This document shows positions 4,706-43,447 of a stretch of 64,000 nucleotides of DNA, piece after piece (within the stretch, counting starts at the first letter, position 1; every line of letters starts with the position of its first letter). The position numbers and the translations under genes are program-made. The stretch is from the sequence record PQ306574.1; one strand, 5' to 3'. The DNA comes from Escherichia phage vB_EcoM_PTE-Eco09. The notes under the pieces were generated by a model. It was not told the origin of the DNA, searched no databases, and was given only the letters and a program-made list of their open reading frames with translations.

Positions 4706-6196
4706 TTAGAAAGTACCAAAATCAATCACCGCATTAAGTGGAACCGCTCCAACATCAGCCGGAGTAGGTTTATTACCTTCATGATAAAGCTGATAGCGGT
4801 CCACGGTTTGAGTATTGTTTCGAGAACGGAAAAACACGACCTTTGAGTCGTGGGTGATCCCCAGCTTTTCGGTCCCTTTAATATCACTAATGCGGTGAAT
4901 CATAGCAGTACCATCAGCACCGCTTAACGCCGCATAACAGTTATCCCCGTTATAGTTAGTTTTAGCTGTTCTAACGCCATTTGCAGCCGGAACAGTTAAC
5001 GGTCCTGTCATGGTATCGCCAGTTACGTTAACATAGCGAATATCGGCTAATTTACGGTGATCTACATAGTTCCATGCAGTCCAGGATTCATTAGAACACG
5101 AACGCCAGCACATCGGATGGTCAATAGATTCAGGATAATACACCTGAACAATTCGACGAGTACCGACCGCATCTTCTGGTCGATATACCATCAAAACGCC
5201 GTTATAATAGCTATCAGACGGTTTATTAGTACCTGACCCAGCATTTTCCACACGATAGATACCGCGATTAATAAGAGTGTTCCAATCAACGTTTCCAATG
5301 ATGGTTGGATTTGCTACCATTGATTTTCGCTCAAAGTAGCTCAAACGAACCAATTCATTAGGACCAGCGGGATCGTTTGTCGCCAACATTCTAGGCGCTT
5401 GCAAGTTACCTTCCATAATATCACCAGCACGTTTAACCTGTGCATCATTGGTGACATTGCCTAGCCCAACATCGGCTTTAGTTGGTTTATTGTTGGTGTG
5501 ATAAAAACGACCTTCTCTGCCATTAACAAAAATGGTAGGCTCATCTTTACTTCGGAAGACCAACGTATCAAGAACGTTACCATAATAGATCTTAGTCGCA
5601 TCAAAATTAATTAAATCACGTTCCCTTGCAATTAATTTCGAATCAACCGATAGTTTAACAGTGACAGTGTTTAAATTATACGTTCCTGAGAGAGTATCAC
5701 CGCGACGGGAAACTAAATCCAAATCATTATTCGTTGGTTTATTAACAGGGCTATAGACACGTTGACCTGTGTCTTTAATGGTTGTCCCTTCGATAGTCCC
5801 TTTAGACTTAAATTCGCCCGTTGTGGTGTCAATATACGCCATAATAACGCCATCACGGGCATTAACAAAGCCGATTGACTTCCATGAATGCAAACCCCAG
5901 CTTACGCCGTCAAAATTAGCAGCGTCGCTCTGACCTTTAAAGATACCATTCTTTTTGGTTTCTCCAGCCGATGCGCTACCTACGCTTAAACCTTCCTCGA
6001 AATGAACTTGCTTTTGAAATGTGCCACCTTCGGATGCACTAACAGCATCAAAATCGGTAGCCGAAGGTCTATCAAAAGCGGTATAGATTTTATGACCTTT
6101 GTAGAAAAGCTGATCCCCCGCTGGCTGGATCGTCAAGTTTCCTTGCGTCCAAATGGGAGATCCACCTACAGTAGATCCATATTTCAAATCTGCCAT
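4706..6196 (-). CDS. 36: long tail fibre subunit gp36 (enlarged, 496 aa)
   Basis: N-terminus MADLKYGSTVGGSPIWTQGN…PAGD matches T4 gp36 N-terminus; about twice T4 gp36 length. Confidence 0.8.
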   Translation of the reverse strand: MADLKYGSTVGGSPIWTQGNLTIQPAGDQLFYKGHKIYTAFDRPSATDFDAVSASEGGTFQKQVHFEEGLSVGSASAGETKKNGIFKGQSDAANFDGVSWGLHSWKSIGFVNARDGVIMAYIDTTTGEFKSKGTIEGTTIKDTGQRVYSPVNKPTNNDLDLVSRRGDTLSGTYNLNTVTVKLSVDSKLIARERDLINFDATKIYYGNVLDTLVFRSKDEPTIFVNGREGRFYHTNNKPTKADVGLGNVTNDAQVKRAGDIMEGNLQAPRMLATNDPAGPNELVRLSYFERKSMVANPTIIGNVDWNTLINRGIYRVENAGSGTNKPSDSYYNGVLMVYRPEDAVGTRRIVQVYYPESIDHPMCWRSCSNESWTAWNYVDHRKLADIRYVNVTGDTMTGPLTVPAANGVRTAKTNYNGDNCYAALSGADGTAMIHRISDIKGTEKLGITHDSKVVFFRSRNNTQTVDRYQLYHEGNKPTPADVGAVPLNAVIDFGTF

Positions 6197-22540: not shown

Positions 22541-22708
22541 ATGACCAAATTAAAATGTGTTGCTGTAGATTTTGAGCTAGCTGATAGCTTTGTTGTTGGT
22601 GATGAATATGATGCTCGACATGATGGGACTTGCTACTACGTCGAGGATGAATACGGTGTAGAATGGGCGATTCTTCCTGATGATAAATGTTTTGAGGTTG
22701 TCGGATAA
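22541..22708 (+). CDS. hypothetical small protein (55 aa)
   Basis: ATG with SD GTGAGG downstream of promoter; track ORF extends upstream without start signals. Confidence 0.45.
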   Translation: MTKLKCVAVDFELADSFVVGDEYDARHDGTCYYVEDEYGVEWAILPDDKCFEVVG

Positions 22709-22881
22709 TGGCTACTGTATGGTTATTGATTGCAATAAGCAATTCAATGTATAATTACGGAAATATGTCAAGCATTGAGTTTGCAACAAAGCAGGATTGC
22801 GTTAAAGCTCGCGAGATTATCCGCGAAGACAATAAACGCTTTATGAATCTATATTGCGTTGAAAAACAAAAGGTGAACTAA
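22708..22881 (+). CDS. small hydrophobic-N-terminus protein, paralog 1 (57 aa)
   Basis: MATVWLLIAISNS…CVEKQKVN; start overlaps upstream stop (TAATG); hand-derived. Confidence 0.4.
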   Translation: MATVWLLIAISNSMYNYGNMSSIEFATKQDCVKAREIIREDNKRFMNLYCVEKQKVN

Positions 22882-23048
22882 TGGCTACATTATGGTTATT
22901 GCTTTCCGTTAGCGTAGGCGTATATAATAAAGGAACTGTTACCAGCGTAGAGTTTTCATCATATCAAAATTGTTTTGAAGCTGTGCAGGAATTGCAGCAG
23001 GATAGCGAAATAAACAGAAATACTAAGTTCTTTTGTGTTAAAAAGTGA
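22881..23048 (+). CDS. small hydrophobic-N-terminus protein, paralog 2 (55 aa)
   Basis: MATLWLLLSVSVG…FCVKK; paralogous to previous ORF; start overlaps upstream stop. Confidence 0.4.
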   Translation: MATLWLLLSVSVGVYNKGTVTSVEFSSYQNCFEAVQELQQDSEINRNTKFFCVKK

Positions 23049-23765: not shown

Positions 23766-24932
23766 ATGGGAAATACGGTATTTAATCGTGAACACGTTGA
23801 TATTATGAATGAACCGATGTTTCTGGGCAGCGGTTTAGGTATCGCTCGTTATGACATTCAGCGTCATCAAGTATTTGAAGAATTAATTGAAAAATCTCTG
23901 TCATTTTTTTGGCGCCCCGAAGAAATTTCACTTGCAACCGACCGCATTCAATATCTTAATATGGGTGACGTTGAAAAGCGTTTCTTTACTGAAAACTTGA
24001 AGTATCAGACATTACTTGATTCTATTCAAGGTCGCGCACCGTCCGCAGCATTTGGTCCAATTGTATCTGATCCAACTCTCGATACATGGTTGCAAACATG
24101 GACATTCAGCGAAACGATTCATAGCCGAAGCTATACACACATTATGCGTAACTGTTTCATTGATCCGGCTAGTGAGTTCGACCAGATCATCGATAACCCT
24201 GCTATCATGAAGCGAGCGGAATCTATCGGGAAATATTATGATGATGTTCTTTATTGGATTCGTAAGTATGAGAATGCAAAAGAAGATCTCCGCTATTGGG
24301 AAGAACGAGACGACCAGACAGCATTAGATGATGCAAGAAGATTTTTTGAAGATACAAAACGAGATCTGATGGCTTCGATTTATCTGTGTGCACACTGCGT
24401 AAATGCACTGGAAGCAATCCGTTTTTATGTGTCCTTTGCATGTACTTTCAGCTTTGCCGAACGTGGTTTACTGGAAGGTAACGCGAAGATCATGAAATTT
24501 ATTGCGCGTGATGAACAACTTCACTTAAAAGGAACACAATACATTATTCGTCAATGGCAAACGGGGGTTGATGGTGATGAGTGGAAACAGATTGCGGAAG
24601 AACTTGAAGGCGAAGCAACGAAAATCTTTCTGGATGTTGTCGAGCAAGAAAAAGAATGGGTAGACCACCTATTCGCAATGGGGGCAATTCCTAACCTGTC
24701 ACCGGAAATTCTGAAAACCTATGTAGAATACCTGGCAGATTCCCGTATGCGTGCTGCCGGACTGAAAAGCCCGTTTAGTGTTCGTCGTCATCCGTTACCG
24801 TGGATGCGTAAATGGTTGAACTCTGACGAAGTACAGAATGCAGCGCAGGAAGTAGAGATTATGTATCTGGTATCTCAGGTTAATACCGATTTAACAGACG
24901 ACGACTACAACCGATTCGGGAAATATCTATGA
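23766..24932 (+). CDS. nrdB: ribonucleotide reductase small subunit (class Ia beta)
   Basis: 388 aa, same length as T4 NrdB; di-iron/tyrosyl radical protein motifs (SETIHSRSYTHI, CTFSFAERG, ARDEQLH); continuous ORF. Confidence 0.95.
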   Translation: MGNTVFNREHVDIMNEPMFLGSGLGIARYDIQRHQVFEELIEKSLSFFWRPEEISLATDRIQYLNMGDVEKRFFTENLKYQTLLDSIQGRAPSAAFGPIVSDPTLDTWLQTWTFSETIHSRSYTHIMRNCFIDPASEFDQIIDNPAIMKRAESIGKYYDDVLYWIRKYENAKEDLRYWEERDDQTALDDARRFFEDTKRDLMASIYLCAHCVNALEAIRFYVSFACTFSFAERGLLEGNAKIMKFIARDEQLHLKGTQYIIRQWQTGVDGDEWKQIAEELEGEATKIFLDVVEQEKEWVDHLFAMGAIPNLSPEILKTYVEYLADSRMRAAGLKSPFSVRRHPLPWMRKWLNSDEVQNAAQEVEIMYLVSQVNTDLTDDDYNRFGKYL

Positions 24933-25405
24933 TATATTTTGTCGATTTAGATTTTACGATCACAGATCCAACGCATCGACTAGCAAAGATGCCAACCGAA
25001 AATCTTGATAAAGTCGAGTCATGGATCGAATATAACAAAGCATGTGGGGGAGATTCCCCCATTTACGATGTAATTCGTGTTATTAATGCTCTTTCCGACA
25101 ACGGGCATTTGATTTACATCCTCACAGGACGAAGTTCACATGCTTACATGGAAACAATTGATTGGTTAATTTCTAACGGGGTGTGTTTTGATAAAATCTT
25201 TATGAGAGGCCGTACCGATTCCCGTAAAGACTATCACATCAAATTAGAGGTAATTAAATCCTTTGATAAAGATGAAGTTGTCGGAGTCTTTGAGGATAAC
25301 CCAGAAGTGATTAAAGTTTTGCGTGAAAATGGTTATCGTGTCTTTGACGTAGGAAATCACAAAGATAAGACGCGAGCGGATATTGCAAATCACGGTCATG
25401 ATTAA
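24929..25405 (+). CDS. HAD-superfamily phosphatase-like protein
   Basis: 158 aa; N-terminal DxDxT (VDLDFTIT) and downstream HAD-like elements; resembles the phosphatase half of PseT. Confidence 0.5.
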   Translation: MIYFVDLDFTITDPTHRLAKMPTENLDKVESWIEYNKACGGDSPIYDVIRVINALSDNGHLIYILTGRSSHAYMETIDWLISNGVCFDKIFMRGRTDSRKDYHIKLEVIKSFDKDEVVGVFEDNPEVIKVLRENGYRVFDVGNHKDKTRADIANHGHD

Positions 25406-28799: not shown

Positions 28800-29132
28800 A
28801 TGTTTAAGAAAGCACATAAGAATTTTCAGACCTCCATAATCCATGTCTTCGCTTTGCCTATTGTATTTGCGCTTTCTTCGTGTACAATGGACCATTATTC
28901 ACAGGAACCGAAAGTACATCCTCCACTACCAGCACCAATAGAAAAAGTTGACATTGACCTGAAAGTGGATACAATAGACGGTAAACCTAGAGTTTCTATG
29001 TCGTGGGAGGACTCCCAAAAATTCAGAGTCTGGCTTGCGGATATTAAGAGATATACACTTGAAAGTAAGTTGATCATGTGTTATTATCGAAAAGAACTTA
29101 ATGAGGAACGGTGCAAACCGAAGGAGAAATAA
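28800..29132 (+). CDS. o-spanin-like lipoprotein (the ORF could instead start at 28680)
   Basis: Internal ATG gives signal peptide MFKKAHKNFQTSIIHVFALPIVFALSSC with lipobox-like LSSC; Pro-rich mature part; position as T4 pseT.2. Confidence 0.45.
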   Translation: MFKKAHKNFQTSIIHVFALPIVFALSSCTMDHYSQEPKVHPPLPAPIEKVDIDLKVDTIDGKPRVSMSWEDSQKFRVWLADIKRYTLESKLIMCYYRKELNEERCKPKEK

Positions 29133-30010
29133 TGCCGAAATGTGAAGTGATTTTAACCGTTGGTTGTTCTGGGTCCGGTAAAACTACATGGGCGATGGAA
29201 ACATGTAAACGGTTTAGTAATTATCGTAATGTGAATCGTGATGATCTTCGTCTTATGTTGTTTGGTGTTGACTCACATTTGAAATACAAGTATACTAAGG
29301 AAAAAGAAAAGCTGGTAGAGTCTATTCAGAGAATGATTGCTCGTGAGACTCTATCACGCGGATTGAGTATCATTATCTCCGATACCAACCTGAAAGAAAA
29401 ACATCGTGTATTCTACAAAGAACTTGCAAAAGAATTTAACGCGGTGTATACTGAACAAGTGTTCAATGAATCATTTGAGACACTAAAGAAACGTAATTTC
29501 TATCGCGGTGAGAAAGCAATTCCACTTTCTCATTTGCGCAACCAATTTTATCTGATGCAGGAATATATGGGTCAAGAAGTATACAAACCGAATACCATGC
29601 TGCCAAAGGCAGTGATCTTTGATATTGATGGGACATTAGCGGATAAGGGCGGTCGTCATCCGTTTGACTGGACAAAGGTCAAAGAAGATAAACCTCGTCC
29701 GCAAGTGGTCGAAATGCTTAAACTGTATCGTGATAATGGTTATCGTATCATTACATGCTCAGGGCGTGAGGATGTTTGCGAAGAAGATACTCTGCAATGG
29801 TTGCGTGAACAGGGTATTGAACCGAGTGATCACTTTCAACGTGAAACTAATGATCGTCGTCCTGATCATGAAGTGAAGAAAGAGATCTTCTTCTCTGAAA
29901 TTGCACCGCGTTATCATGTTGTTTTGGCGGTAGATGACCGTGATCAAGTGGTTGACATGTATCGCTCAATTGGTGTAGAATGTTTTCAGGTTAACTACGG
30001 AGACTTTTAA
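29132..30010 (+). CDS. pseT: polynucleotide 5'-kinase / 3'-phosphatase
   Basis: P-loop GCSGSGKTT, HAD phosphatase DxDGT (IFDIDGTLA), C-terminus VDDR-QVV-MYRSIGVEC-QV--GDF matching T4 Pnk; start at ATG after GGAG. Confidence 0.9.
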   Translation: MPKCEVILTVGCSGSGKTTWAMETCKRFSNYRNVNRDDLRLMLFGVDSHLKYKYTKEKEKLVESIQRMIARETLSRGLSIIISDTNLKEKHRVFYKELAKEFNAVYTEQVFNESFETLKKRNFYRGEKAIPLSHLRNQFYLMQEYMGQEVYKPNTMLPKAVIFDIDGTLADKGGRHPFDWTKVKEDKPRPQVVEMLKLYRDNGYRIITCSGREDVCEEDTLQWLREQGIEPSDHFQRETNDRRPDHEVKKEIFFSEIAPRYHVVLAVDDRDQVVDMYRSIGVECFQVNYGDF

Positions 30011-31660: not shown

Positions 31661-32129
31661 AATTGATATCTATGCGGGTGGACCTTATCCATCGGGTGAA
31701 TTGAGTAATTTCAATAAAAGACCATTCCGTCTATTTGGTTGCGATATTAACAGCACAGAAGGATTTTTACAGGGGCTAAGATTTAAGAACCCTCAGAGAC
31801 AAAGAGAAATCTTTTTGATGCACGGTGGCAAAGCAAAAAGAACCGGAAGAACTGAAAAGATTGAGAATCACCTGTTATATTTTCAGGGTCGCCAGATTCA
31901 TCGAATGAGTGAGCATTATTACAGACTGGTACATCTGGCATTTGTTACGATGGCACGGAATAACCCAGAATTTTGTAAAGCATTACTCGCTACCGGAAAT
32001 AAGAAATTACGTCATAGTATAGGTGGAACTGATCCGTTAAAGACTATATTGACTGAATCGGAATTTTGTAGTATCCTCAATGATATTCGTGAACGTTTAA
32101 CAAAACGAGGTGAAAATGTCAATTCTTAA
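31650..32129 (+). CDS. NADAR (YbiA/DUF1768)-like domain protein
   Basis: 159 aa; motifs in NADAR order (GELSNF; STEGFLQGLRF; GGKAKRTGR; ALLATGNKKL-HSIGGTDP). Confidence 0.5.
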   Translation: MTSEIDIYAGGPYPSGELSNFNKRPFRLFGCDINSTEGFLQGLRFKNPQRQREIFLMHGGKAKRTGRTEKIENHLLYFQGRQIHRMSEHYYRLVHLAFVTMARNNPEFCKALLATGNKKLRHSIGGTDPLKTILTESEFCSILNDIRERLTKRGENVNS

Positions 32130-33612
32130 TATCATTAATCAGCTTGCAGCAACAGACAAAACATCGCTGAAAGAAAAGATTCTGAAAGAATCAGCAAGCA
32201 ATGAAACGCTGAAAGAATGCTTTTATCTGGCATATTGCAAACAGGTTACGTTTGGCGTAAAGAAATACGATAAACCGTCTCGCTATTCGTCTGTATTGTC
32301 TTTATCCGGTGCATTACAGGTCTTTAAAAATAAACTTGCCACGCGTCAAGTAACTGGTAATGCAGCATTACAACTAGTTACCGATACTCTGACTTGCTTG
32401 TCAGAGGATGATGCTAAAGTTGCAATGATGGTCCTGAATCGTGATCTGGAATGCGGCTGTTCCGCTACCACTGCAAACAAGGTATGGAAGAAACTGATCC
32501 CCCAGCAACCGTGCCACCTTGCATCGTCATGTTCTGATAAGACTATTGCTAATATCAAGTATCCGGCGTATGCACAACTTAAAAGCGATGGCGCTCGTGG
32601 TATGGCTGATATTGACGGGGAAACATTAGCAATCTATACCCGCTCAGGTAATACCTATCAAGGGCTTGATGATTTGTTTGCGGTTTTAGAGCGTCTACGA
32701 GGCCGTGGAATTGTTCTAGATGGCGAATTGGTATATATGCCTACCCTTTCGCAAACACCAGCGCAGAACTTCGTTGAAAGCGTTTATGATGGTACTCTGT
32801 CATGGATATTTGAAGAAGAGGAAATGCCATTAACGCCAGTAGCGGAAGCAGTGAAAGAATCCGTTGTTGCAGATCGTCAGACCGGAAATGGTATCCTCAA
32901 CAAATCACTTAAAGGAACTATTCCAAAAGAAGAAGCCCAATGTATTGTTTACACTGTCTGGGATGTTATCGACCGTGATGTGTATTACGGAAACGAGAAA
33001 GCAACGAAGCAATATAAAGATCGATTCGAAGAACTAAAACAGATTGTTGAAGAACTTAACGATCCTCGTGTTCAGATCATCGAAAACACTGTAGTTAACA
33101 ATATCGATGAAGCTCGCGAAGTATATCATCGTTATGTCAACATGGGCTTAGAAGGTATTATCCTTAAAAATTTACATGGTGTATTTGAAGATCGCCGTAG
33201 TAAAGATCAGGTTAAATTTAAAGAAGTGATTGACTTCGACGCGGAAATTGTTGATGTATATCCGCATAGTAAAGACCCCAATAAGGTAGGCGGTTTTACT
33301 GTCCGTAGTGCGTGCGGACGAATGATGACTAACACCGGATCGGGATTAACCGACACTACAACCGAAAAAGGTGATGATGGTATCGAACGTGTAATTCCGT
33401 TCGATCGTCGAAATGAACTCGACCGAGAAATGTTATGGGCTGACCGTCATAACCTGATTGGAAAAGTCATTGAGATGACATGCAACGGGTATATCCGCAG
33501 CAAATCACGTAAAGAAGATGAACCGGAGTTCTCTTTATTTCTCCCAATCATCAAACGTATTCGCTACGACAAGACCACTGCAAATACAGTAAAAGAGGTA
33601 TTCGATGTGTGA
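32116..33612 (+). CDS. 30: ATP-dependent DNA ligase
   Basis: Colinear with T4 DNA ligase (KQLKADGAR active-site lysine region, LDGELVY, NKSLKGTI-KEEAQC, NNIDEA, LEGIILKN, KFKEVID, PHRKDP-K-GGF, FLPI-R-R-DKT-ANT). Confidence 0.9.
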   Translation: MSILNIINQLAATDKTSLKEKILKESASNETLKECFYLAYCKQVTFGVKKYDKPSRYSSVLSLSGALQVFKNKLATRQVTGNAALQLVTDTLTCLSEDDAKVAMMVLNRDLECGCSATTANKVWKKLIPQQPCHLASSCSDKTIANIKYPAYAQLKSDGARGMADIDGETLAIYTRSGNTYQGLDDLFAVLERLRGRGIVLDGELVYMPTLSQTPAQNFVESVYDGTLSWIFEEEEMPLTPVAEAVKESVVADRQTGNGILNKSLKGTIPKEEAQCIVYTVWDVIDRDVYYGNEKATKQYKDRFEELKQIVEELNDPRVQIIENTVVNNIDEAREVYHRYVNMGLEGIILKNLHGVFEDRRSKDQVKFKEVIDFDAEIVDVYPHSKDPNKVGGFTVRSACGRMMTNTGSGLTDTTTEKGDDGIERVIPFDRRNELDREMLWADRHNLIGKVIEMTCNGYIRSKSRKEDEPEFSLFLPIIKRIRYDKTTANTVKEVFDV

Positions 33613-34081
33613 TAATGAAGGGGCGAAAGCCCCTAAACCTAAAAAATTGTCAAAGAAAGAGCAACGCCAGATCCTGAAAATGAAATATGGTGGACGTTGT
33701 GCCTATTGTGGCGAGGAACTAGGGGATCGCTGGCACGCGGACCACATCAAACCAGTATTGCGACGCTCAAAGGTAGTCTATGATGAAAATGGACGAATTG
33801 CCCGTAATGATGATGGATCATGGAAATATAAGGTTGTAGGAATGCATAAACCGGAGCATGATATACTTGATAACATGAATCCGGCGTGTGTGCAATGCAA
33901 TCTTTATAAAAGCTGTATGGGCTTAGAATACTGGCGTAAGTGTATACGCGAGAACTTCCAGAAGTACATTCAGCGCAATATGGGATTGCGAGCGGCTAAA
34001 CGCTTTGGCTTGCTGTCAATCCACGACCAGCCAGTAGAATTTTATTTCGAAAAGTACGATCGCGAGCATCAAGAAAAATAA
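33605..34081 (+). CDS. HNH endonuclease-like protein
   Basis: CAYCG…HADHIKP…N…CVQCN arrangement; true start may be downstream of the GNRA hairpin at about 33621-33637. Confidence 0.6.
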   Translation: MCDNEGAKAPKPKKLSKKEQRQILKMKYGGRCAYCGEELGDRWHADHIKPVLRRSKVVYDENGRIARNDDGSWKYKVVGMHKPEHDILDNMNPACVQCNLYKSCMGLEYWRKCIRENFQKYIQRNMGLRAAKRFGLLSIHDQPVEFYFEKYDREHQEK

Positions 34082-34093
34082 TTCAAAAAGTTG

Positions 34094-34122
34094 TTGACAG
34101 GGGATCGGTGATCCCCTATACT
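34094..34122 (+). promoter_or_regulatory. PeSL-like element (promoter with palindromic spacer)
   Basis: TTGACA-GGGGATCGGTGATCCCC-TATACT; leader ACACAC-ATCAAAACGA…GGAGAATCAAAAATG. Confidence 0.55.
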
Positions 34123-34167
34123 ACACACATCAAAACGAAACACACTTTCTTAAACGGAGAATCAAAA

Positions 34168-34479
34168 ATGAAATACATCGTAACGCTGCCAATGATTGAC
34201 TTCGACGGAACCATGAACACCCAGAAGACCATGAGCGCGGAGAACCAACTGAAAAACGCTACCCTGATTCGTGAAGTTCGCAAGGCACTGGCAAAAGAAT
34301 TTAACACCAAAATTCATTCTGTAACTGGCGAACGTTTCGCGGATCATCTTGATATCAACATCAAACCAGTGCGCAACGGTGTTATCTCTGTAACAACCAG
34401 CCGCCCACATGCTGACGCTGATAATCTGACCGCTCGCGCAGAAGATGTAATTATGACCGTTATCATGGAAAAACTTTAA
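34168..34479 (+). CDS. hypothetical protein (103 aa); paralog of ORF 36360-36647
   Basis: Shares AKEFN-K block with 36360 ORF (REVRKALAKEFNTKI vs VRDAVAKEFNFKF). Confidence 0.5.
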   Translation: MKYIVTLPMIDFDGTMNTQKTMSAENQLKNATLIREVRKALAKEFNTKIHSVTGERFADHLDINIKPVRNGVISVTTSRPHADADNLTARAEDVIMTVIMEKL

Positions 34480-34487
34480 AAAAGTTG

Positions 34488-34516
34488 TTGACAGGGGATC
34501 ACCGATCCCCTATACT
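34488..34516 (+). promoter_or_regulatory. PeSL-like element
   Basis: TTGACA-GGGGATCACCGATCCCC-TATACT; spacer palindrome kept with its centre inverted relative to 34100. Confidence 0.55.
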
Positions 34517-34550
34517 ACACACATACCAACGAGATATAGGAGAATCAAAA

Positions 34551-34718
34551 ATGTTCCAGACTAAAGCAGAATGCGAAGCATACATTGTAGCAAACCACGG
34601 CGAAGATTATCTGAAATTTGACATTGTAGTAGCACAGAAGATCACCGGAATGGTTGCAAAATATCTGGGTGTTAAAGAAGGTTACTATCCGAGCAACGCA
34701 CCGGAAATCAACAAATAA
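34551..34718 (+). CDS. hypothetical small protein (55 aa); duplicated at 37835-38002
   Basis: MFQTKAECEAYIVANHGEDYLKFDIVVAQKITGMVAKYLGVKEGYYPSNAPEINK; near-identical second copy. Confidence 0.55.
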   Translation: MFQTKAECEAYIVANHGEDYLKFDIVVAQKITGMVAKYLGVKEGYYPSNAPEINK

Positions 34719-34721
34719 TAG

Positions 34722-34756
34722 TTGACAATGATTAAAGGGAGTAGTAAGATACTCCC
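34722..34756 (+). promoter_or_regulatory. PeSL-like element
   Basis: TTGACA-N17-TAAGAT; inverted repeat GGGAGTA/TACTCCC. Confidence 0.55.
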
Positions 34757-34782
34757 ATCAAGACAACAAACGGAGAATCAAA

Positions 34783-34962
34783 ATGAAAGCTATCGAAGTT
34801 CAGAAGTACATGGAAATCATCGTTGAAGGTAAAGCACATACAGTATTGACTACCCACGTAGGATATGATAAAAATGTGCATATGCTGGTAGACAATATCG
34901 GCTGGATGAAGTTTAATCCTAACGAGAACGTACAAGCTCAAGAAATGACCATCCCTTTCTAA
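34783..34962 (+). CDS. hypothetical small protein (59 aa)
   Basis: MKAIEVQKYMEIIVEGKAH…; hand-derived. Confidence 0.4.
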   Translation: MKAIEVQKYMEIIVEGKAHTVLTTHVGYDKNVHMLVDNIGWMKFNPNENVQAQEMTIPF

Positions 34963-34974
34963 GAGGAATATATT

Positions 34975-35253
34975 ATGATGCGAATTACTGCAACGCTGGA
35001 TAAGACACACAAAGAAAGATTTTTCGGTATGATCTTAAAAACGCCGATTTTCGATAATTACCTTTATGTTGACTATGAAGGTCACATTAGCTATAAATGT
35101 AAAAATGATATTCGTGATTCCTTTGGTGATAAATCACAATCTGATATTCATGACCACTGGTGGAACCATGACGAACCTTTACGAGTTATCGCAGTTGATG
35201 TAAAAACAACAAAAGAAGCTGATAAGGTAGTGAATGATTATGAGCAAATTTAA
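34975..35253 (+). CDS. hypothetical protein, paralog family A member 1
   Basis: Y-Y-D block, His-rich HDHWW motif and VIAVDV block shared with ORFs 35677, 36000, 36701. Confidence 0.5.
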   Translation: MMRITATLDKTHKERFFGMILKTPIFDNYLYVDYEGHISYKCKNDIRDSFGDKSQSDIHDHWWNHDEPLRVIAVDVKTTKEADKVVNDYEQI

Positions 35254-35497
35254 AGAATACAAAGCATATCAACAGATCCTGCGAGTATACGCACCAGAGT
35301 TCGCCGAAAAGATGATGGAAGATGCATCAAAATGCCCGTCCTTTTCTGGAAACAAAAACCATTATTCTACTCGTATTGTATCATGGAAAGAAACATGCTA
35401 CACTCAACAGTGGATAAACGTTTTCTCAAAAACAATTGGTTGGAATGGTGTTAATTATGGGTATTCAGAGTCAATTCAAAGATTATCGAGTGTATAA
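35234..35497 (+). CDS. hypothetical protein, paralog family B member 1
   Basis: F-EYKAY…AEKMMEDASKCPSF…IVSWKET shared with next ORF. Confidence 0.5.
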   Translation: MIMSKFKEYKAYQQILRVYAPEFAEKMMEDASKCPSFSGNKNHYSTRIVSWKETCYTQQWINVFSKTIGWNGVNYGYSESIQRLSSV

Positions 35498-35675
35498 AGA
35501 AATCTGTGCTGTATTTGATGAGAAAACAGCAGATAAAATGATGAAAGAAGCGTCACAATGTTCATCTTTTGTTGATAACAAAGATTTAAGAGTAAATGAG
35601 ATCGTGTGCTGGAGCGACACGAAACATGAAATTGTATGGCGTACCGTGTACTATAGCCGCGACCGAGGATTATAA
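35457..35675 (+). CDS. hypothetical protein, paralog family B member 2
   Basis: FKDYRVY…ADKMMKEASQCSSF…IVCWSDT; tandem paralog. Confidence 0.45.
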   Translation: MGIQSQFKDYRVYKEICAVFDEKTADKMMKEASQCSSFVDNKDLRVNEIVCWSDTKHEIVWRTVYYSRDRGL

Positions 35676-35676
35676 A

Positions 35677-35985
35677 ATGAAATTAACTAAAAAGATTTTC
35701 CCAGAATTGCGTAACTGTCTGTTACTGGTTACTGAATATAAGCCGTATACGATCTACTTGTACGTTGATGAAAATCTGAAAATCCGTTACTATGATTATA
35801 CGTCTCCAGTGATGCAATCATTTTCTCACTCGATAGCAAATAACTGTATGAATCACAATCATTGGGTATCAAAAACGGATGACGATGCGTCAGAAGTTGT
35901 AGTGGTTGCATGGAATCTATCACCAGCGGAAGCAGATCAAGCACGCATTCAGCATTACGCGAAAAACAACGGTCAAACTTTATAA
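35677..35985 (+). CDS. hypothetical protein, paralog family A member 2
   Basis: YTIYLYVDENLKIRYYDY…NHNHW…VVVVAW. Confidence 0.45.
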   Translation: MKLTKKIFPELRNCLLLVTEYKPYTIYLYVDENLKIRYYDYTSPVMQSFSHSIANNCMNHNHWVSKTDDDASEVVVVAWNLSPAEADQARIQHYAKNNGQTL

Positions 35986-35999
35986 GTGAGGAAAATATT

Positions 36000-36278
36000 A
36001 TGTTCAAAGTAGGTGATAAGTTTATTCTTAGTCGTGATATTCTCCCTAATCTGAAAGGTTGTATCATCAATCCTAGTAAAAATTCATGGTTTTATCTGTT
36101 TATCGACGACAAACTGAATGTACGCGCAGAATATAAAGAAGGTCTTCGTACTGGTCTAGGTTTCTTTCACGATCATGATCATAGCCATTGGCTAAACGGT
36201 GGATTCGAAGCAACGGTGCTAGCGGTTGATGTGACTTACACGAACATCATAGAAAAATATCAAAAAATTATTTTATAA
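36000..36278 (+). CDS. hypothetical protein, paralog family A member 3
   Basis: FYLFIDDKLNVRAEY…HDHDHSHW…VLAVDV. Confidence 0.45.
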   Translation: MFKVGDKFILSRDILPNLKGCIINPSKNSWFYLFIDDKLNVRAEYKEGLRTGLGFFHDHDHSHWLNGGFEATVLAVDVTYTNIIEKYQKIIL

Positions 36279-36284
36279 AAAGTA

Positions 36285-36318
36285 TTGACACCGGATCGGG
36301 GATATAGCATAATATCCC
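36285..36318 (+). promoter_or_regulatory. PeSL-like element
   Basis: TTGACA-N17-CATAAT; inverted repeat GGGGATAT/ATATCCCC around -10; ATCGAAACGAGATACACTTTC leader. Confidence 0.55.
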
Positions 36319-36359
36319 CATCGAAACGAGATACACTTTCTAACTAGGAGAATCAAATT

Positions 36360-36647
36360 ATGGCATACATTACTATCACTCTGAAAGTTAACAAATTCGC
36401 TCACGCTGCACACGAAACCGATAATGCAATCCGTAACAACAAGTTCGCACGTCTGGTACGCGATGCGGTAGCTAAAGAGTTCAACTTCAAATTTGCAGAT
36501 GGTAAAGTTATCACTAAATGGACTCATGACGGCGAAACTAAAGTAGAACTTGCTGATAACTTCGCAAATCAGGAATATGCACACCGTCGCATTAATGAAA
36601 TTATCAGCGATGAACTCTACTACGGTGTACAGGAAGGACTGTTTTAA
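36360..36647 (+). CDS. hypothetical protein (95 aa); paralog of ORF 34168-34479
   Basis: ATG ORF behind PeSL; shared AKEFN block. Confidence 0.5.
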   Translation: MAYITITLKVNKFAHAAHETDNAIRNNKFARLVRDAVAKEFNFKFADGKVITKWTHDGETKVELADNFANQEYAHRRINEIISDELYYGVQEGLF

Positions 36648-36652
36648 TATAC

Positions 36653-36676
36653 GGGGCGTTAAGCCCCACCCCTTTT
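36653..36676 (+). terminator. terminator-like hairpin
   Basis: GGGGC-GTTAA-GCCCC then CCCCTTTT; same hairpin sequence recurs at 40433. Confidence 0.5.
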
Positions 36677-36700
36677 CATCCAACTATTGAGGATAATACT

Positions 36701-37009
36701 ATGAAAGATAATATCTTTGAATTTACCCGCGAAAATCTCCCAATGTTCCGAAAGTCTCTGCTTAAACTAGAGAACAGTAATTATGATGTATATTTTTACA
36801 TCACCGAAGACCTAGAGATCCTTTACGCAGATTATCCAGGTCCGATCCGTACCTTCGAAGAAGCATCGCAGTATAAAAATGTTCACGGTCATGAGCACTG
36901 GTTACGAGAAAACCCAGGTCGCAAGAAAGCACGCGTTAAAGTGATTGCGATTGACGTAACACCAGCATACGCCGACCGGATTGCACTGAATGATTATTTG
37001 TCTAAATGA
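36701..37009 (+). CDS. hypothetical protein, paralog family A member 4
   Basis: YDVYFYITEDLEILYADY…HGHEHW…VIAIDV. Confidence 0.5.
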   Translation: MKDNIFEFTRENLPMFRKSLLKLENSNYDVYFYITEDLEILYADYPGPIRTFEEASQYKNVHGHEHWLRENPGRKKARVKVIAIDVTPAYADRIALNDYLSK

Positions 37010-37016
37010 TTTTATT

Positions 37017-37042
37017 AGCCGACCTTAGTGTCGGCTTTTTTA
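37017..37042 (+). terminator. rho-independent terminator
   Basis: AGCCGAC-CTTAGT-GTCGGCT followed by TTTTTT. Confidence 0.6.
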
Positions 37043-37757: not shown

Positions 37758-37771
37758 TTTTAAAAAAGTTG

Positions 37772-37800
37772 TTGACGGGGATCGGGAGATCCCCTATAAT
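37772..37800 (+). promoter_or_regulatory. PeSL-like element
   Basis: TTGACG-GGGATCGGGAGATCCCC-TATAAT; palindromic spacer. Confidence 0.55.
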
Positions 37801-37834
37801 GCACACATACCAACGAGATATAGGAGAATCAAAA

Positions 37835-38002
37835 ATGTTCCAGACTAAAGCAGAATGCGAAGCATATATCATTGAAACCCACGGCGAAGATTATCTGAAA
37901 TTTGACATTGTAGTAGCACAGAAGATTGTAGGGATGGTTGCGAAATACCTCGGAGTTAAAGAAGGTTACTATCCTAGCAACGCACCAGAAATTAACAAAT
38001 AA
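37835..38002 (+). CDS. hypothetical small protein (55 aa); second copy of ORF 34551-34718
   Basis: MFQTKAECEAYIIETHGEDYLKFDIVVAQKIVGMVAKYLGVKEGYYPSNAPEINK; 3 aa differences from first copy. Confidence 0.55.
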   Translation: MFQTKAECEAYIIETHGEDYLKFDIVVAQKIVGMVAKYLGVKEGYYPSNAPEINK

Positions 38003-38015
38003 TTTTATAAAAAGT

Positions 38016-39292: not shown

Positions 39293-39621
39293 TGAGATTG
39301 TTTAAGTATTCGCTAACGTCAAATTACGATAAACAAGGTCATTGCATCCGTTGCCCTGATTGTCATAGCCATAACATCGAAAGCAAGATCACCGATCATA
39401 TTGATGGACTTTGGTCGCCAGCAAGTGAAATAGAATACTATTGCGCTGATTGTGGAATTGTAGTAGCATATTGGGCATACGGATCATATGATCCATACTT
39501 CCAGATGGGAGAGCGTTCAATCCCTGCGCTTATCTGGAGAATTAAGAACAATATCCGGCATTCATGGGATGAGTTCTTAAAAGATATTGATTTACGTGAT
39601 GACCCATTCAGGAGACTATAA
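39289..39621 (+). CDS. zinc-ribbon protein (110 aa)
   Basis: CIRCPDC … CADCG four-cysteine arrangement; overlapping start with upstream stop. Confidence 0.45.
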   Translation: MMRLFKYSLTSNYDKQGHCIRCPDCHSHNIESKITDHIDGLWSPASEIEYYCADCGIVVAYWAYGSYDPYFQMGERSIPALIWRIKNNIRHSWDEFLKDIDLRDDPFRRL

Positions 39622-39622
39622 C

Positions 39623-40141
39623 ATGAACCGTTTAACGCCTAAACGCCGTTACTATACCAATACTAAAAACTTTGTCATCTCTGTTTATGATGCATGGTTA
39701 GAAGATGGCTATATCAACATGAACCCAGATTATCAGCGTCCTTTAGTATGGGACACCGAAAACAAACGTATGTTTATTGAAAACCTGATTAATGATTTTC
39801 CGGTTGGTGCTATCGCAATGGCTAAGATTGATGATGGCTCTCGCTATGAGATCGAAATCGTGGACGGTAAACAGCGTTTAAACGCAATATTCTCCTTTAT
39901 GAAGGATGAGTTTAGCATTGCTTGTAATGATGATTCTATGTTGTATTACAGTGATTTTACGCCAGCAGAAAAGCGACGTTTCCGAAATCTCGGACTACCC
40001 GCGATCATGATGGAAGAGAGCACACGAGAAGACCGATTAGAGTATTTCTACAAAACAAACTTTTTCGGTGTACCTCAATCGGAAGAACATCGCCAGCATG
40101 TGATTGCATTATTGCAAGATGAACAATTAAAAAATAACTAA
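39623..40141 (+). CDS. DUF262 / ParB-like domain protein (about 172 aa) without nuclease domain
   Basis: DYQRPLVW and EIVDGKQRLNAI resemble DUF262 signatures (FQRxxVW, DGQQR) of GmrSD-type N-terminal domains; start at ATG after GGAG. Confidence 0.45.
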   Translation: MNRLTPKRRYYTNTKNFVISVYDAWLEDGYINMNPDYQRPLVWDTENKRMFIENLINDFPVGAIAMAKIDDGSRYEIEIVDGKQRLNAIFSFMKDEFSIACNDDSMLYYSDFTPAEKRRFRNLGLPAIMMEESTREDRLEYFYKTNFFGVPQSEEHRQHVIALLQDEQLKNN

Positions 40142-40493: not shown

Positions 40494-42545
40494 ATGTTTA
40501 ACTTAGAAATCGACGATCTAATGATTGAATCTTTCGAGAAATGGCTGTTGACGGAAGAGGAAGAAAACTTTGGCAGTATTGCTCCTGTACAGTGCTTAAA
40601 GCCTAAGCAGAATCCTAAACAGCTTTTTGCAGTACAGACACGCGATAAAGATGTGATTGTCCGTCTTTGCAACTTCACCAACAAAACACCTAAAATCATT
40701 CGTATGGGTGACAAGACCGCACATGTTGTACTGTGCGAAATGAACAAAAGCGGTCGTATTGTACAGCTTAAAAATGGTCTAGGCGATAACCCGATTGCAG
40801 TTATGTCAAGTGCTTTTGATGTGGTTATGGAAACAGCCCGTAAAGCGCAATTAGACGCTGTTATGTTCCGTTTTAACGTATCCCGCATGAAAGGTAAGAC
40901 CGAACTGGTTAAGCGCGTTATAGAGCGTTTGGTGCGTCGTACACCGAAGTTTGAAGTATTCCAGCAGGAAGTAATGACCAGCAAAAAGATCGCTTTAGTT
41001 GTTGTCAAGCGTCGCGGTATGGCGATTGATAAGATTAAAGGGATTAAACTTGATGATTCCTTGTTCACTAAAGTAGAAAGTGATTTAGGTGATCGCTGGG
41101 TATCTAAGGCTACTGGTGAATCTCTGACTAAAGATGAGGCATATGCGGCTAGTCTTGTGTCAGAAGAAGAACGAAACGCGGAAGCGGAACAACGCGTAGC
41201 GGCTAAATCTCGTTTGACTAAAGAAGAAATGCTGAAAACTCAAGCGACCTATAACAGCGACTATGTGAATCATCCAGAAAAAATTAATCTTAAACCGGAA
41301 GAAGATATCACCGAAGCCGAACCTAAGAAACAGTTTAATACTCTGATTGATCGTCAAGCCTTAGAACGTTCAACCGCCCGTTCTCTGAATGACTGGACAA
41401 GTGATATTATCACTCGCTATGGTTTCATGCGTACTATTTTTGAAAGCGAAGCCGATGCAAAATACGCAGTAAGCGAACTGGTAAAAGTTCAGGATCAATA
41501 TGATCCGTTGTCTGCGGAAGTTATCGCAGCATCAATCAAACGCTTAAAAGAAATCATGAGCGAGGAAGTATTCGAAAACAAGATCACCGCCCGGGCAATG
41601 GATCGAGTAGACCAGTCTATGCCAGCAGATGTAAAAGCTGAAATGCTGCGTAGTCATATCACCCAGATTAAAACCGATGCCCTACGTAATGTTGCGTCCG
41701 GTATGTTTGAAGCAATTGCTAGCAACATGGGTGAAATGATGGCAGATATTGATCTTGATCTGCCAGGCGCGGAAGGTTTTGTGTTGAGCGAATATGCCGA
41801 TGCAGCATACATCAATATGAACAACTTCCTAACTGATCGTAAGCTGGAAGAGTTTGAAGGCATCGCAGATCCAGAAGAATTGGTCAAGATGTGCGATGCA
41901 CTGGATAATGCCTTCTCCAACTATGGCGTTAAACTTGATCCGGGTACTATTCTGTATCGTGGTATGGACTTCCGGTCGCAAATGTGGGAAACTGCACGTA
42001 AGCAAAAAGCGTTTTACTTTAAAAACTATGTGAGCACTTCCCTTGCACCTAACATTTTTGGCGGCTGGAATGCAAACGTGGCTAGTGCCGTTGCTGGTGT
42101 TGATTCTATGGCTGGCTCTCGCGGTGAAGGTGGCGCTAATGTTGCTTTCTCCATTGCTGGCGCGGAAAACATCCCTGTATTGCCAGTAGGTAACAAAGCA
42201 TTTGCTTACAAAGAATGCGAGATTTTACTTCCTCGCGGTGTTGTGTTATCCTTTGATACGGTAACTCGTGCTACGGCATCGACGGATTCACAAGAAACTT
42301 ATTACATTGAGGCACATATTATGAACAAAAATGAACTGGCAGCATTACAAGAATCTGGCGAGATGATCGCGGACGGTGATGCATTCATCCGTGAAGGTGT
42401 TATTAAACCTGCTTCTGACCTGTCTTTCTCCAGCTTTATTACCGAAGCTAAAACCGAACGTAAGAAAGCAGATAAGGCAACTCTACGTCAGCTTATCGCT
42501 GATCTGGTATCTGTAGACGCAATGCCAGATAAATTTAAAATGTAA
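40494..42545 (+). CDS. alt: ADP-ribosyltransferase Alt
   Basis: 683 aa, essentially the T4 Alt length; shared blocks (LFTKVES-GD…TKDEA-AAS); R-S-E ART motifs (LYRG, STS, ECEILLPRG). Confidence 0.8.
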   Translation: MFNLEIDDLMIESFEKWLLTEEEENFGSIAPVQCLKPKQNPKQLFAVQTRDKDVIVRLCNFTNKTPKIIRMGDKTAHVVLCEMNKSGRIVQLKNGLGDNPIAVMSSAFDVVMETARKAQLDAVMFRFNVSRMKGKTELVKRVIERLVRRTPKFEVFQQEVMTSKKIALVVVKRRGMAIDKIKGIKLDDSLFTKVESDLGDRWVSKATGESLTKDEAYAASLVSEEERNAEAEQRVAAKSRLTKEEMLKTQATYNSDYVNHPEKINLKPEEDITEAEPKKQFNTLIDRQALERSTARSLNDWTSDIITRYGFMRTIFESEADAKYAVSELVKVQDQYDPLSAEVIAASIKRLKEIMSEEVFENKITARAMDRVDQSMPADVKAEMLRSHITQIKTDALRNVASGMFEAIASNMGEMMADIDLDLPGAEGFVLSEYADAAYINMNNFLTDRKLEEFEGIADPEELVKMCDALDNAFSNYGVKLDPGTILYRGMDFRSQMWETARKQKAFYFKNYVSTSLAPNIFGGWNANVASAVAGVDSMAGSRGEGGANVAFSIAGAENIPVLPVGNKAFAYKECEILLPRGVVLSFDTVTRATASTDSQETYYIEAHIMNKNELAALQESGEMIADGDAFIREGVIKPASDLSFSSFITEAKTERKKADKATLRQLIADLVSVDAMPDKFKM

Positions 42546-42622: not shown

Positions 42623-43447
42623 ATGTTCAAGAAATTACAGGATTTTCGTATTTCAGAAGAATCACGCGAATCAATGATGGAACGTATGGATAATTACATC
42701 GAAACATATGACATTGAGGGGATTAATGGTTACATGATCACTGAGATGATCAGTGATCAGATTAACTTTGATGATTATGTGAAGGTTATCCGCTTCCTTG
42801 AGCGCGAGACACAAGATTATGGATTTGTCAAGAAAATCATTAATGTGATGTATGAAGTACACTCCGAAGAATTTGGAGATAATGTATTCAAACATTACAA
42901 ACATAACAACATAACCCCAGCAGAATATAATGCAATCTGTGATTATGTGTCTGAACAATACGAATGGGTAAATGGTGCTCTCTTAGGGGAAGAAGACATG
43001 ACCGATGAGATATCAGAGATTGTCGATTTGATGGATTGCGTCATGGATAAAACCGAAAAGTTAAACGGTACTCTTTATCGAGGTCAACATCTTGACATTC
43101 AGACAATAGAGCGTATCATTGAAGATAAGGAGTTTACCTTTAAAAACTTTGTATCTACCAGCATGACACCGATCATATTTGGAGGATGGCTATCAAACAG
43201 CACTAGCCTTTATTGTGAGAATCGATATGAATCAATGACCGGAAAGATGCAACATTCTTGTAATGTATCATGGGTAATTGACGTAAAAGATCATAAAGGT
43301 TTTGTTGTTGGGTCAATTGCATGGAACCCTTGCGAATGTGAAGTAATTTTACCGCGAGGGACTTGCGTCAAGGTAAACGACGTAGTAGAATCTTTCGGCG
43401 ATGAGAATCGTAGACAATTTACAATTTTCGGTGAGGTGACTAAATGA
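42623..43447 (+). CDS. second ADP-ribosyltransferase (Alt/Mod-like paralog, 274 aa)
   Basis: R-S-E motifs: TLYRGQ, FKNFVSTSMTP (compare Alt FKNYVSTSLAP), ECEVILPRG. Confidence 0.6.
   Translation: MFKKLQDFRISEESRESMMERMDNYIETYDIEGINGYMITEMISDQINFDDYVKVIRFLERETQDYGFVKKIINVMYEVHSEEFGDNVFKHYKHNNITPAEYNAICDYVSEQYEWVNGALLGEEDMTDEISEIVDLMDCVMDKTEKLNGTLYRGQHLDIQTIERIIEDKEFTFKNFVSTSMTPIIFGGWLSNSTSLYCENRYESMTGKMQHSCNVSWVIDVKDHKGFVVGSIAWNPCECEVILPRGTCVKVNDVVESFGDENRRQFTIFGEVTK

Follow-up and report, generated by a model that had tools for sequence, protein, structure and literature searches.

Why should a phage keep several related copies of small proteins in a region whose short open reading frames (ORFs) have been treated as unrelated orphans? 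The question is raised by a 64,000-nucleotide stretch of Escherichia phage vB_EcoM_PTE-Eco09 (sequence record PQ306574.1; hereafter the window), in which such ORFs crowd the + strand between 34.0 and 38.1 kb. An earlier note made from the sequence alone had assigned eight of them to three paralogue families, A, B and C, and had suggested that these were diversifying under a host-interaction arms race. We find that the families are real, that their members are held under purifying selection, and that their most likely role, proposed with low confidence, is that of early accessory proteins directed at the host.

All eight ORFs exist as reported and begin with ATG. Family A comprises A1 (34975-35253, 92 amino acids (aa), motif HDHW), A2 (35677-35985, 102 aa, HNHW), A3 (36000-36278, 92 aa, HSHW) and A4 (36701-37009, 102 aa, HEHW); with its length of about 85-110 aa and its H-x-H-W motif, each copy matches the hidden Markov model (HMM) of the family at 95-140 bits. 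Family B consists of B1 (35234-35497, 87 aa) and B2 (35457-35675, 72 aa), and family C of C1 (34168-34479, 103 aa, the orthologue of RB49p210) and C2 (36360-36647). A fourth pair, D1 (34551-34718, 55 aa) and D2 (37835-38002, 55 aa), had escaped the earlier note, as had two further A paralogues in related phages. When Smith-Waterman scores were compared with those of 1000 shuffles, z-scores reached 20.3 for A2-A4, 9.7 for A1-A3, 9.2 for A3-A4, 8.4 for A2-A3, 7.6 for A1-A4, 24.4 for B1-B2 (40% identical) and 6.3 for C1-C2, while eight cross-family control pairs stayed at or below 1.4. The similarities are thus significant in formal pairwise alignment, with A1-A2 (z 3.3) as the only pair below 6.3.

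Profile evidence agrees with this grouping. The window proteins are full-length members of PHROGs families (E 1e-33 to 1e-65), all of them labelled 'unknown function'. B1 and B2 both belong to phrog_8471 (E 3e-36 and 2e-33), D1 and D2 to phrog_8009, and C1 and C2 to phrog_7474, which they match end to end (E 7e-43 and 5e-43); BLAST aligns the two C proteins over the AKEFN block only (27 bits). A2 and A4 share phrog_9345 (about E-50), which A1 (E 3e-3) and A3 (E 7e-5) match weakly, these two having PHROGs of their own (phrog_15972 and phrog_17255, respectively). PHROGs therefore splits family A in three, whereas profile, intermediate-sequence and structure evidence unites the three parts, together with the RB49p208 and RB49p206 types of related phages. 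One metagenomic sequence of intermediate type (L007_344, also P0055) aligns with each of the four A copies (63, 59, 41 and 29 bits), and it is because such intermediate sequences connect A1 and A2 that we retain this weak link.

The segment from 33.6 to 38.1 kb is 94-99% identical at the nucleotide level to Krischvirus genomes (RB49, FL37, kaaroe, PHB13 and others; 58 records), and the window is a Krischvirus genome, i.e., that of an RB49-like T4-type coliphage. The paralogue region lies directly 3' of the gene for the DNA ligase gp30 (32110-33612) and an HNH endonuclease gene (33605-34081). In RB49 and phi1, such hyperplastic regions (HPRs) were described as sets of small orphan ORFs (ORFans), each preceded by a promoter-early stem-loop (PeSL) cassette, in which a strong sigma70-type promoter is combined with a G/C stem-loop (Arbiol et al., 2010; PMC2839356). 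The paralogue stretch is part of the known RB49/phi1 HPR after gp30, so that it is borne out that small proteins form multi-copy families in an accessory region of the phage. In the RB49 annotation, every one of these genes is a hypothetical protein.

Eight PeSL promoters lie on the + strand between 34.0 and 38.1 kb (at 34094, 34488, 34722, 36285, 37067, 37414, 37772 and 38017), each with 10-11 of 12 consensus matches (TTGACA-N17-TATAAT-like). They show the hallmarks of PeSLs: an AT-rich tract precedes the near-consensus sigma70 promoter, a G/C-rich stem-loop lies between or overlaps the hexamers (GGGGATC...GATCCCC between -35 and -10), and a Shine-Dalgarno (SD) sequence and a small ORF follow. 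The sequence GGAGAATCAAA(A)ATG comes after the PeSL stem-loop, and the AAAAAGTTGTTGACA motif is enriched (25 matches observed against 8.9 expected). T4-type late promoters (TATAAATA) are absent from 31.1 to 50 kb. Given near-consensus sigma70-type promoters and no late promoter, we infer that the paralogue genes are early genes by promoter type.

These promoters define several transcription units. The PeSL at 34083-34167 (P34094; TTGACA-17-TATACT, with the GGGGATC...GATCCCC stem-loop between the hexamers and then the SD GGAG) drives C1, and a PeSL between C1 and D1 (34480-34550; P34488) drives D1. A third (34719-34782; P34722) has TTGACA-17-TAAGAT and a stem-loop that covers the -10 hexamer (-15.2 kcal/mol, z -4.5); it drives an operon of six tightly packed or overlapping genes, E1-A1-B1-B2-A2-A3, with no promoter in between and with E1 (34783-34962, 59 aa) as the first gene. 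The PeSL at 36279-36359 (P36285; TTGACA-17-CATAAT with stem-loop) drives C2 and probably also A4. Between these two genes lies a weak GC-rich hairpin (GGGGC-GUUAA-GCCCC, 36653-36667; z -1.9), a possible attenuator, and a good intrinsic terminator (37017-37042; 7-bp stem plus U-run) follows A4. Further downstream come the single-gene PeSL cassettes of F1, G1, D2 (37760-38002 with its PeSL) and H1. The PeSL-ORFan cassettes described for the HPRs of RB49 and phi1 (Arbiol et al., 2010, PMC2839356; Comeau et al., 2014, PMC4122927) come from the same genus and the same region, and they likewise place a near-consensus sigma70 promoter, a G/C stem-loop and an SD before small ORFans. In both papers, however, the ORFs are treated as unrelated and paralogy or duplication is mentioned nowhere, whereas the ORFans of the window form at least four paralogue families. 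Unlike the described cassettes, moreover, five of the family members share one operon without a PeSL between them.

Are these copies diversifying, as the earlier note had supposed? Pooled ratios of non-synonymous to synonymous substitution (dN/dS; Nei-Gojobori method, NG86) were calculated for the window against each of nine other krischviruses. They amount to 0.23 for A1, 0.24 for A2, 0.09 for A3, 0.31 for A4, 0.13 for B1, 0.28 for B2, 0.20 for E1 and 0.10 for D2; the highest value, 0.44 for C1, comes from only 10 substitutions. C2 (54 synonymous and 1 non-synonymous changes) and D1 (81 and 1) both give 0.00, with DNA ligase at 0.02 for comparison, so that these two genes are under the strongest constraint in the block, above that on the ligase. 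The C2 protein is 99-100% identical in the nine krischviruses although dS is about 0.11. The orthologues are real proteins under purifying selection, and this selection at the gene level leaves the notion of diversifying families without support. The comparison of dN/dS among the paralogous copies, which the earlier note had proposed, is uninformative because their synonymous sites are saturated (proportion of synonymous differences (pS) 0.67-0.92); the exception is D1-D2, with a dN/dS of about 0.07.

Gene order is conserved as well. The core block D1-E1-A1-B1-B2-A2-A3-C2-A4-F1-G1 is collinear in all nine other krischvirus genomes and is followed by D2 in eight of them, which also speaks against diversification; two metagenomic krischvirus-like contigs depart from it. 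A copy-number comparison across related phages, also suggested at the outset, does reveal variation (A 4-6, B 1-2, C 1-2, D 1-2). The window has four A copies and lacks A5 (RB49p208 type, GHTHW) and A6 (RB49p206 type, THNHW), two paralogues that lie in a variable stretch from the HNH gene to D1 in related krischviruses and bring the family to as many as six; phiS also lacks C1, and JK32 lacks D2. L014 (a metagenomic krischvirus) has six A copies, a single B and an A2-like gene at the place of A3, and in L016 the A block is directly followed by H. In L014, A5 is immediately preceded by an ORF of 88 aa (5918-6184) that has A-like strand and helix patterns, lacks HxHW and is unmatched by the family HMM; this ORF could be a degenerate family A member or have no relation to the family. 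A more distant T4-type contig (L012 6615-10010; ENA ERZ27235406 k119_4708, 20 kb) carries, after the ligase and HNH genes, a 77-aa ORF and then G-A-H-A-C-B-F, an order that fits the shuffling of cassettes from a common pool.

It is against these data that an arms race has to be judged, in which the families would be fast-diversifying anti-defence or host-range effectors and host immunity would select new copies and alleles. The location in a hyperplastic accessory region, the early promoters, the variable numbers of A and B copies, the existence of two B2 alleles only 61-62% identical, the variability of A4 (86-99% identity, the most variable A copy) and the same families in another order in the divergent L012 would all suit such a process. 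The dN/dS values of at most 0.44 in every gene, the near-invariant C2 and D1 proteins (despite dS of 0.11-0.33), the collinear core block and the ancient rather than recent divergence of the paralogues do not, and we consider this explanation unlikely.

The age of the duplications can be judged from several features. Paralogous copies within A, B and C are 28-39% identical, their synonymous sites are saturated, and separate A1-, A2-, A5- and A6-like copies are already present in divergent relatives; these duplications are ancient. As no PeSL separates A1, B1, B2, A2 and A3, PeSL copying cannot explain how they multiplied; these copies must stem from ordinary tandem duplication long ago. The D pair differs. 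D1 and D2 share 93% of their amino acids, their PeSL-plus-ORF cassettes are about 88% identical at the nucleotide level (counted by eye from the alignment), and their 5' leaders (34476-34725 and 37760-38010) are almost identical except for the upper stem and loop and two positions of the -10 hexamer; this pair was duplicated as a whole PeSL-plus-ORF cassette.

Loss of cassettes has left a trace as well. Compared with RB49 (L001 2709-2830 and 3858-3975), the PeSL at 34480-34550 upstream of D1 is a chimera, whose left part, including the stem-loop, corresponds to PeSL210/209 and whose right part corresponds to PeSL206/205; the p209-p208-p207-p206 cassette of RB49, which includes A5 and A6, is absent from the window. 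The combination of a left/right chimera and a missing cassette makes a PeSL-PeSL deletion directly readable, by which the window has lost A5 and A6. Insertion and deletion mediated by PeSLs is documented, and PeSL-PeSL excision was proposed by Arbiol et al. (2010; PMC2839356); recombination between PeSLs that removes the flanked ORFs is exactly what this junction shows.

Smaller events are visible within single genes. In B1, an insertion of 5 nucleotides at about 35441-35445, seen in comparison with PHB13 and Skers, puts the end of the gene out of frame, so that its last 17 or so residues form a lineage-specific frameshift tail; the protein has 87 instead of 69 aa and its gene overlaps B2 by 41 nucleotides. 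A 9-nucleotide insertion at 35464-35472 adds three residues near the N-terminus of B2. Five of the nine relatives compared (L003, L004, L005, L008 and L011) carry the second B2 allele. Its divergence contrasts with an identity above 90% in the genes on either side and points to recombination as the way in which one allele replaced the other. In kvi (L010 3501-3821) and JSE (P0052), a frameshift or truncation affects A4, whose products there have 85 and 80 aa, respectively.

Such events invite the idea that the ORFs are largely neutral passengers, copied and shuffled by PeSL recombination and mini-circles. PeSL-mediated insertion and deletion is visible in the window itself, D1 and D2 were duplicated along with their PeSL, A4 is broken in two phages and whole cassettes are absent from some. 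Passengers would hardly show purifying selection on all copies, however, very strong on C2, D1, A3 and F1; the A1-B1-B2-A2-A3 series stands in one operon without intervening PeSLs, and orthologues are kept in divergent relatives at 38-56% identity. We therefore regard neutrality as improbable.

How far do the families extend beyond this genus? A word-indexed search of 5.8 billion clusters returned 54 family A proteins of 57-128 aa, and when 1.84 billion representatives were scanned exhaustively with HMMER, only 14 matched at E <=1e-3, 11 of which reached <=1e-10; P0059 (649 aa, repetitive), which is among the 14, looks spurious. All contigs above 100 kb that carry family A measure 164-176 kb, as T4-type phage genomes do. 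Among cultured phages, family A was found in 56 records, krischviruses only, and none turned up when 185,579 prokaryote species genomes were scanned by pattern. Family B is represented by nine clusters and family C by three. The alignment of 17 diverse family A sequences was too diverse for a locus search, which was run with a narrower one and yielded two krischvirus contigs and one false positive, a fibre-like protein of 541 aa in which YLYVD...HW was matched by chance. As far as these sequence searches reach, the families appear to be limited to Krischvirus and to a small number of its close relatives from metagenomes. One such relative is a 2.1-kb contig (L006; Logan SRR8048117) with five A domains, in the order p209-like gene, A5-like (50% identity), E1-like (56%), P0058, A1-like (38%) and A2-like (42%), in which the E1 homologue again precedes family A genes. 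P0058 (823-1434) is a 203-aa tandem A-A fusion with HNHW in each domain.

Within family A, the motifs quoted in the earlier note hold in part: the YLYVD-type strand, the HDHWW/NHNHW/HSHW/HEHW element and the VIAVDV-type strand are present, and the additional histidines it had listed are not conserved. In H-x-H-W, neither the second His nor the Trp varies across the 17 diverse members, and the first His is absent only from A6 of RB49 (TSNHW); no invariant acidic or Cys residue was found among them, which leaves two His per chain, followed by Trp, as conserved potential ligands. The AlphaFold2 model of A4 is confident (predicted local distance difference test score 84.4, predicted template modelling score 0.79) and consists of four short strands, a long HxHW-bearing loop, a fifth strand and a C-terminal helix. 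With low confidence, family A may thus be described as a compact beta-sheet domain with a C-terminal helix and without a solved relative.

Several known proteins were considered as relatives of family A. It shares a short His-x-His loop cluster with histidine-cluster metal sites (HxxHxH of PF04270, HxH of metallo-enzymes), from which it differs in keeping two His and an invariant Trp only and in its unrelated fold and size. The streptococcal histidine triad (PF04270) reached at best 12.7 bits (E 0.13; gathering threshold 27 bits), in A2 only, over residues 58-75, and in the PDB sequence search the histidine-triad entry 9p1v matched the family A profile on the same His stretch at a sub-threshold E of 2. 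The metallo-beta-lactamase fold (HxHxDH in an alpha-beta/beta-alpha sandwich of more than 200 aa) does not fit family A, and fold search did not find the SH3-like barrel implied by a source's name for P0049 (KOW/SH3-like). An HNH nuclease or 2H phosphoesterase, suggested by 'HNH' in A2, was rejected, since the middle residue is variable (D/N/S/E/T) and spacing and fold are unfit. DNA mimicry was rejected on charge; the A and C proteins have isoelectric points (pI) of 5.6-8.1.

What could the HxHW loop do? Because each chain has two conserved ligands and a natural tandem fusion exists in P0058, two such loops might build one common site in a homo- or heterodimer, which would bridge a zinc or nickel ion or line a ligand pocket; we regard such a dimer as a tentative proposal, rather doubtful at present. 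Alternatively, HxH is a classic catalytic metal motif (in metallo-beta-lactamases, cupins and amidohydrolases), and family A could consist of small metal-dependent enzymes, e.g., hydrolases of nucleotide signals or nucleic-acid ends, in which HxH is catalytic, rather than of binders or inhibitors. That HxHW is the sole invariant feature of the family would be in line with this. A domain of only some 90-100 aa in which two potential ligands but neither an acid nor a base are conserved, without significant fold or sequence likeness to any enzyme and with a first His whose loss is tolerated in RB49 A6, makes an enzymatic function distinctly improbable.

Family C has a predicted DinI-like fold, with the beta-alpha-beta-beta-alpha arrangement of E. 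coli DinI (PDB 1GHH/7YWA; Pfam PF06183). Tautomerase/MIF folds score almost as high. Homology to DinI at the sequence level was rejected: identity is 13%, hhalign against DinI gives a probability of 0.4% (E 0.16), and family C has no Pfam DinI match at E <=1. Whereas DinI is acidic (pI 4.74), C1 (8.07) and C2 (6.41) are near neutral, and therefore the DNA-mimic helix of DinI is not common to family C. We consider it possible, if doubtful, that family C docks on a RecA/UvsX-type filament or another partner with a DinI-like geometry and without acidic DNA mimicry, a proposal drawn from the predicted structure. The 77-aa ORF of L007 and L012 may be a remote family C/DinI-fold relative (hhalign probability only 4%).

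We can now return to the function of the families as a whole. Small early host-takeover and anti-defence proteins are known from T-even phages, e.g., Arn, Dmd, Alc and AsiA. Like the families of the window, such proteins measure 55-100 aa, have early sigma70 promoters and a non-essential hyperplastic location, and are dispensable as single copies. No likeness to any of them in sequence or fold was found, however, and families A and C, with the pI range given above, are not acidic DNA mimics. We propose, with low confidence, that the families would be non-structural early accessory proteins, whose partners, from the host or from the replication/recombination machinery of the phage, would be bound soon after infection and would differ from paralogue to paralogue. 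For this host-directed role, taken together with the paralogy, promoters, selection and distribution established above, we see an even balance of probabilities.

Several results weigh against it. Scans of all family members with Pfam, NCBIfam and PADLOC gave nothing above threshold, the A, B and C profiles found nothing below E 0.1 in the PDB sequence search, and no likeness to known anti-phage-defence or anti-defence proteins, as represented by PADLOC models or solved structures, was found. Searches of the literature on RB49 locus tags, Krischvirus paralogues and RB49 anti-defence found nothing that names these genes. Two conserved His, the first of which RB49 A6 lacks, are the whole basis for a metal, family A has no conserved acidic or Cys ligand, and the dimer is derived from a single fusion protein on one metagenome contig. 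As A4 is frameshifted in kvi and JSE, it is dispensable in some lineages. A more far-reaching version, in which family A represents a new fold whose HxH/HxH dimers occur as at least six paralogues, with a separate host factor or immune sensor neutralised by each early in infection, in which the ultra-conserved C2, with its DinI-like fold, is a new, non-acidic kind of modulator of RecA/UvsX filaments, and in which the block forms a genus-specific host-takeover island, strikes us as quite unlikely in its entirety. That the similarities are due to chance or composition, or that the ORFs are not real genes, might be read from BLAST (19.6 bits for A1-A2, no match for A2-A3 and A3-A4, only 24 residues covered for C1-C2), but is contradicted by the shuffle z-scores, PHROGs profiles, intermediates, consistent AlphaFold2 models, dN/dS below 1 and conserved synteny, and is already refuted.

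T4-type hyperplastic regions have been a repeated source of host-takeover and counter-defence genes, yet the majority of the ORFs in them are regarded as orphans without relation to one another. Published work already covers this region with its PeSLs and ORFans, and the families already exist as unnamed PHROGs. What is new here is that the RB49-type ORFans collapse, for a good part of the region, into a few old paralogue families under purifying selection, among them family A with HxHW and no detectable fold relative and family C with a predicted DinI-like fold; the region also offers a clean extra example of PeSL-mediated cassette loss. The paralogue finding is genuine and fairly ordinary for such a phage region, its novelty is modest, and the present evidence reveals no new kind of system.

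Other parts of the window contain further genes of interest. A phage protein with a GmrSD_N (DUF262) domain (Pfam E 6e-20) is encoded at 39587-40141; the 238-aa ORF just upstream of it is called DNA methyltransferase/Dcm in other records and has no Pfam match here. Two paralogous ADP-ribosyltransferase genes (Alt/Mod-like; 37% identity over 109 aa) follow at 40494-42545 and 42623-43447. A stand-alone PNKP-phosphatase-domain protein is related to the polynucleotide kinase/phosphatase, the pair being encoded at 24929-25405 and 29111-30010. Finally, two ORFs of about 55 aa (22708-22881 and 22881-23048) form a tandem pair with 38% identity.

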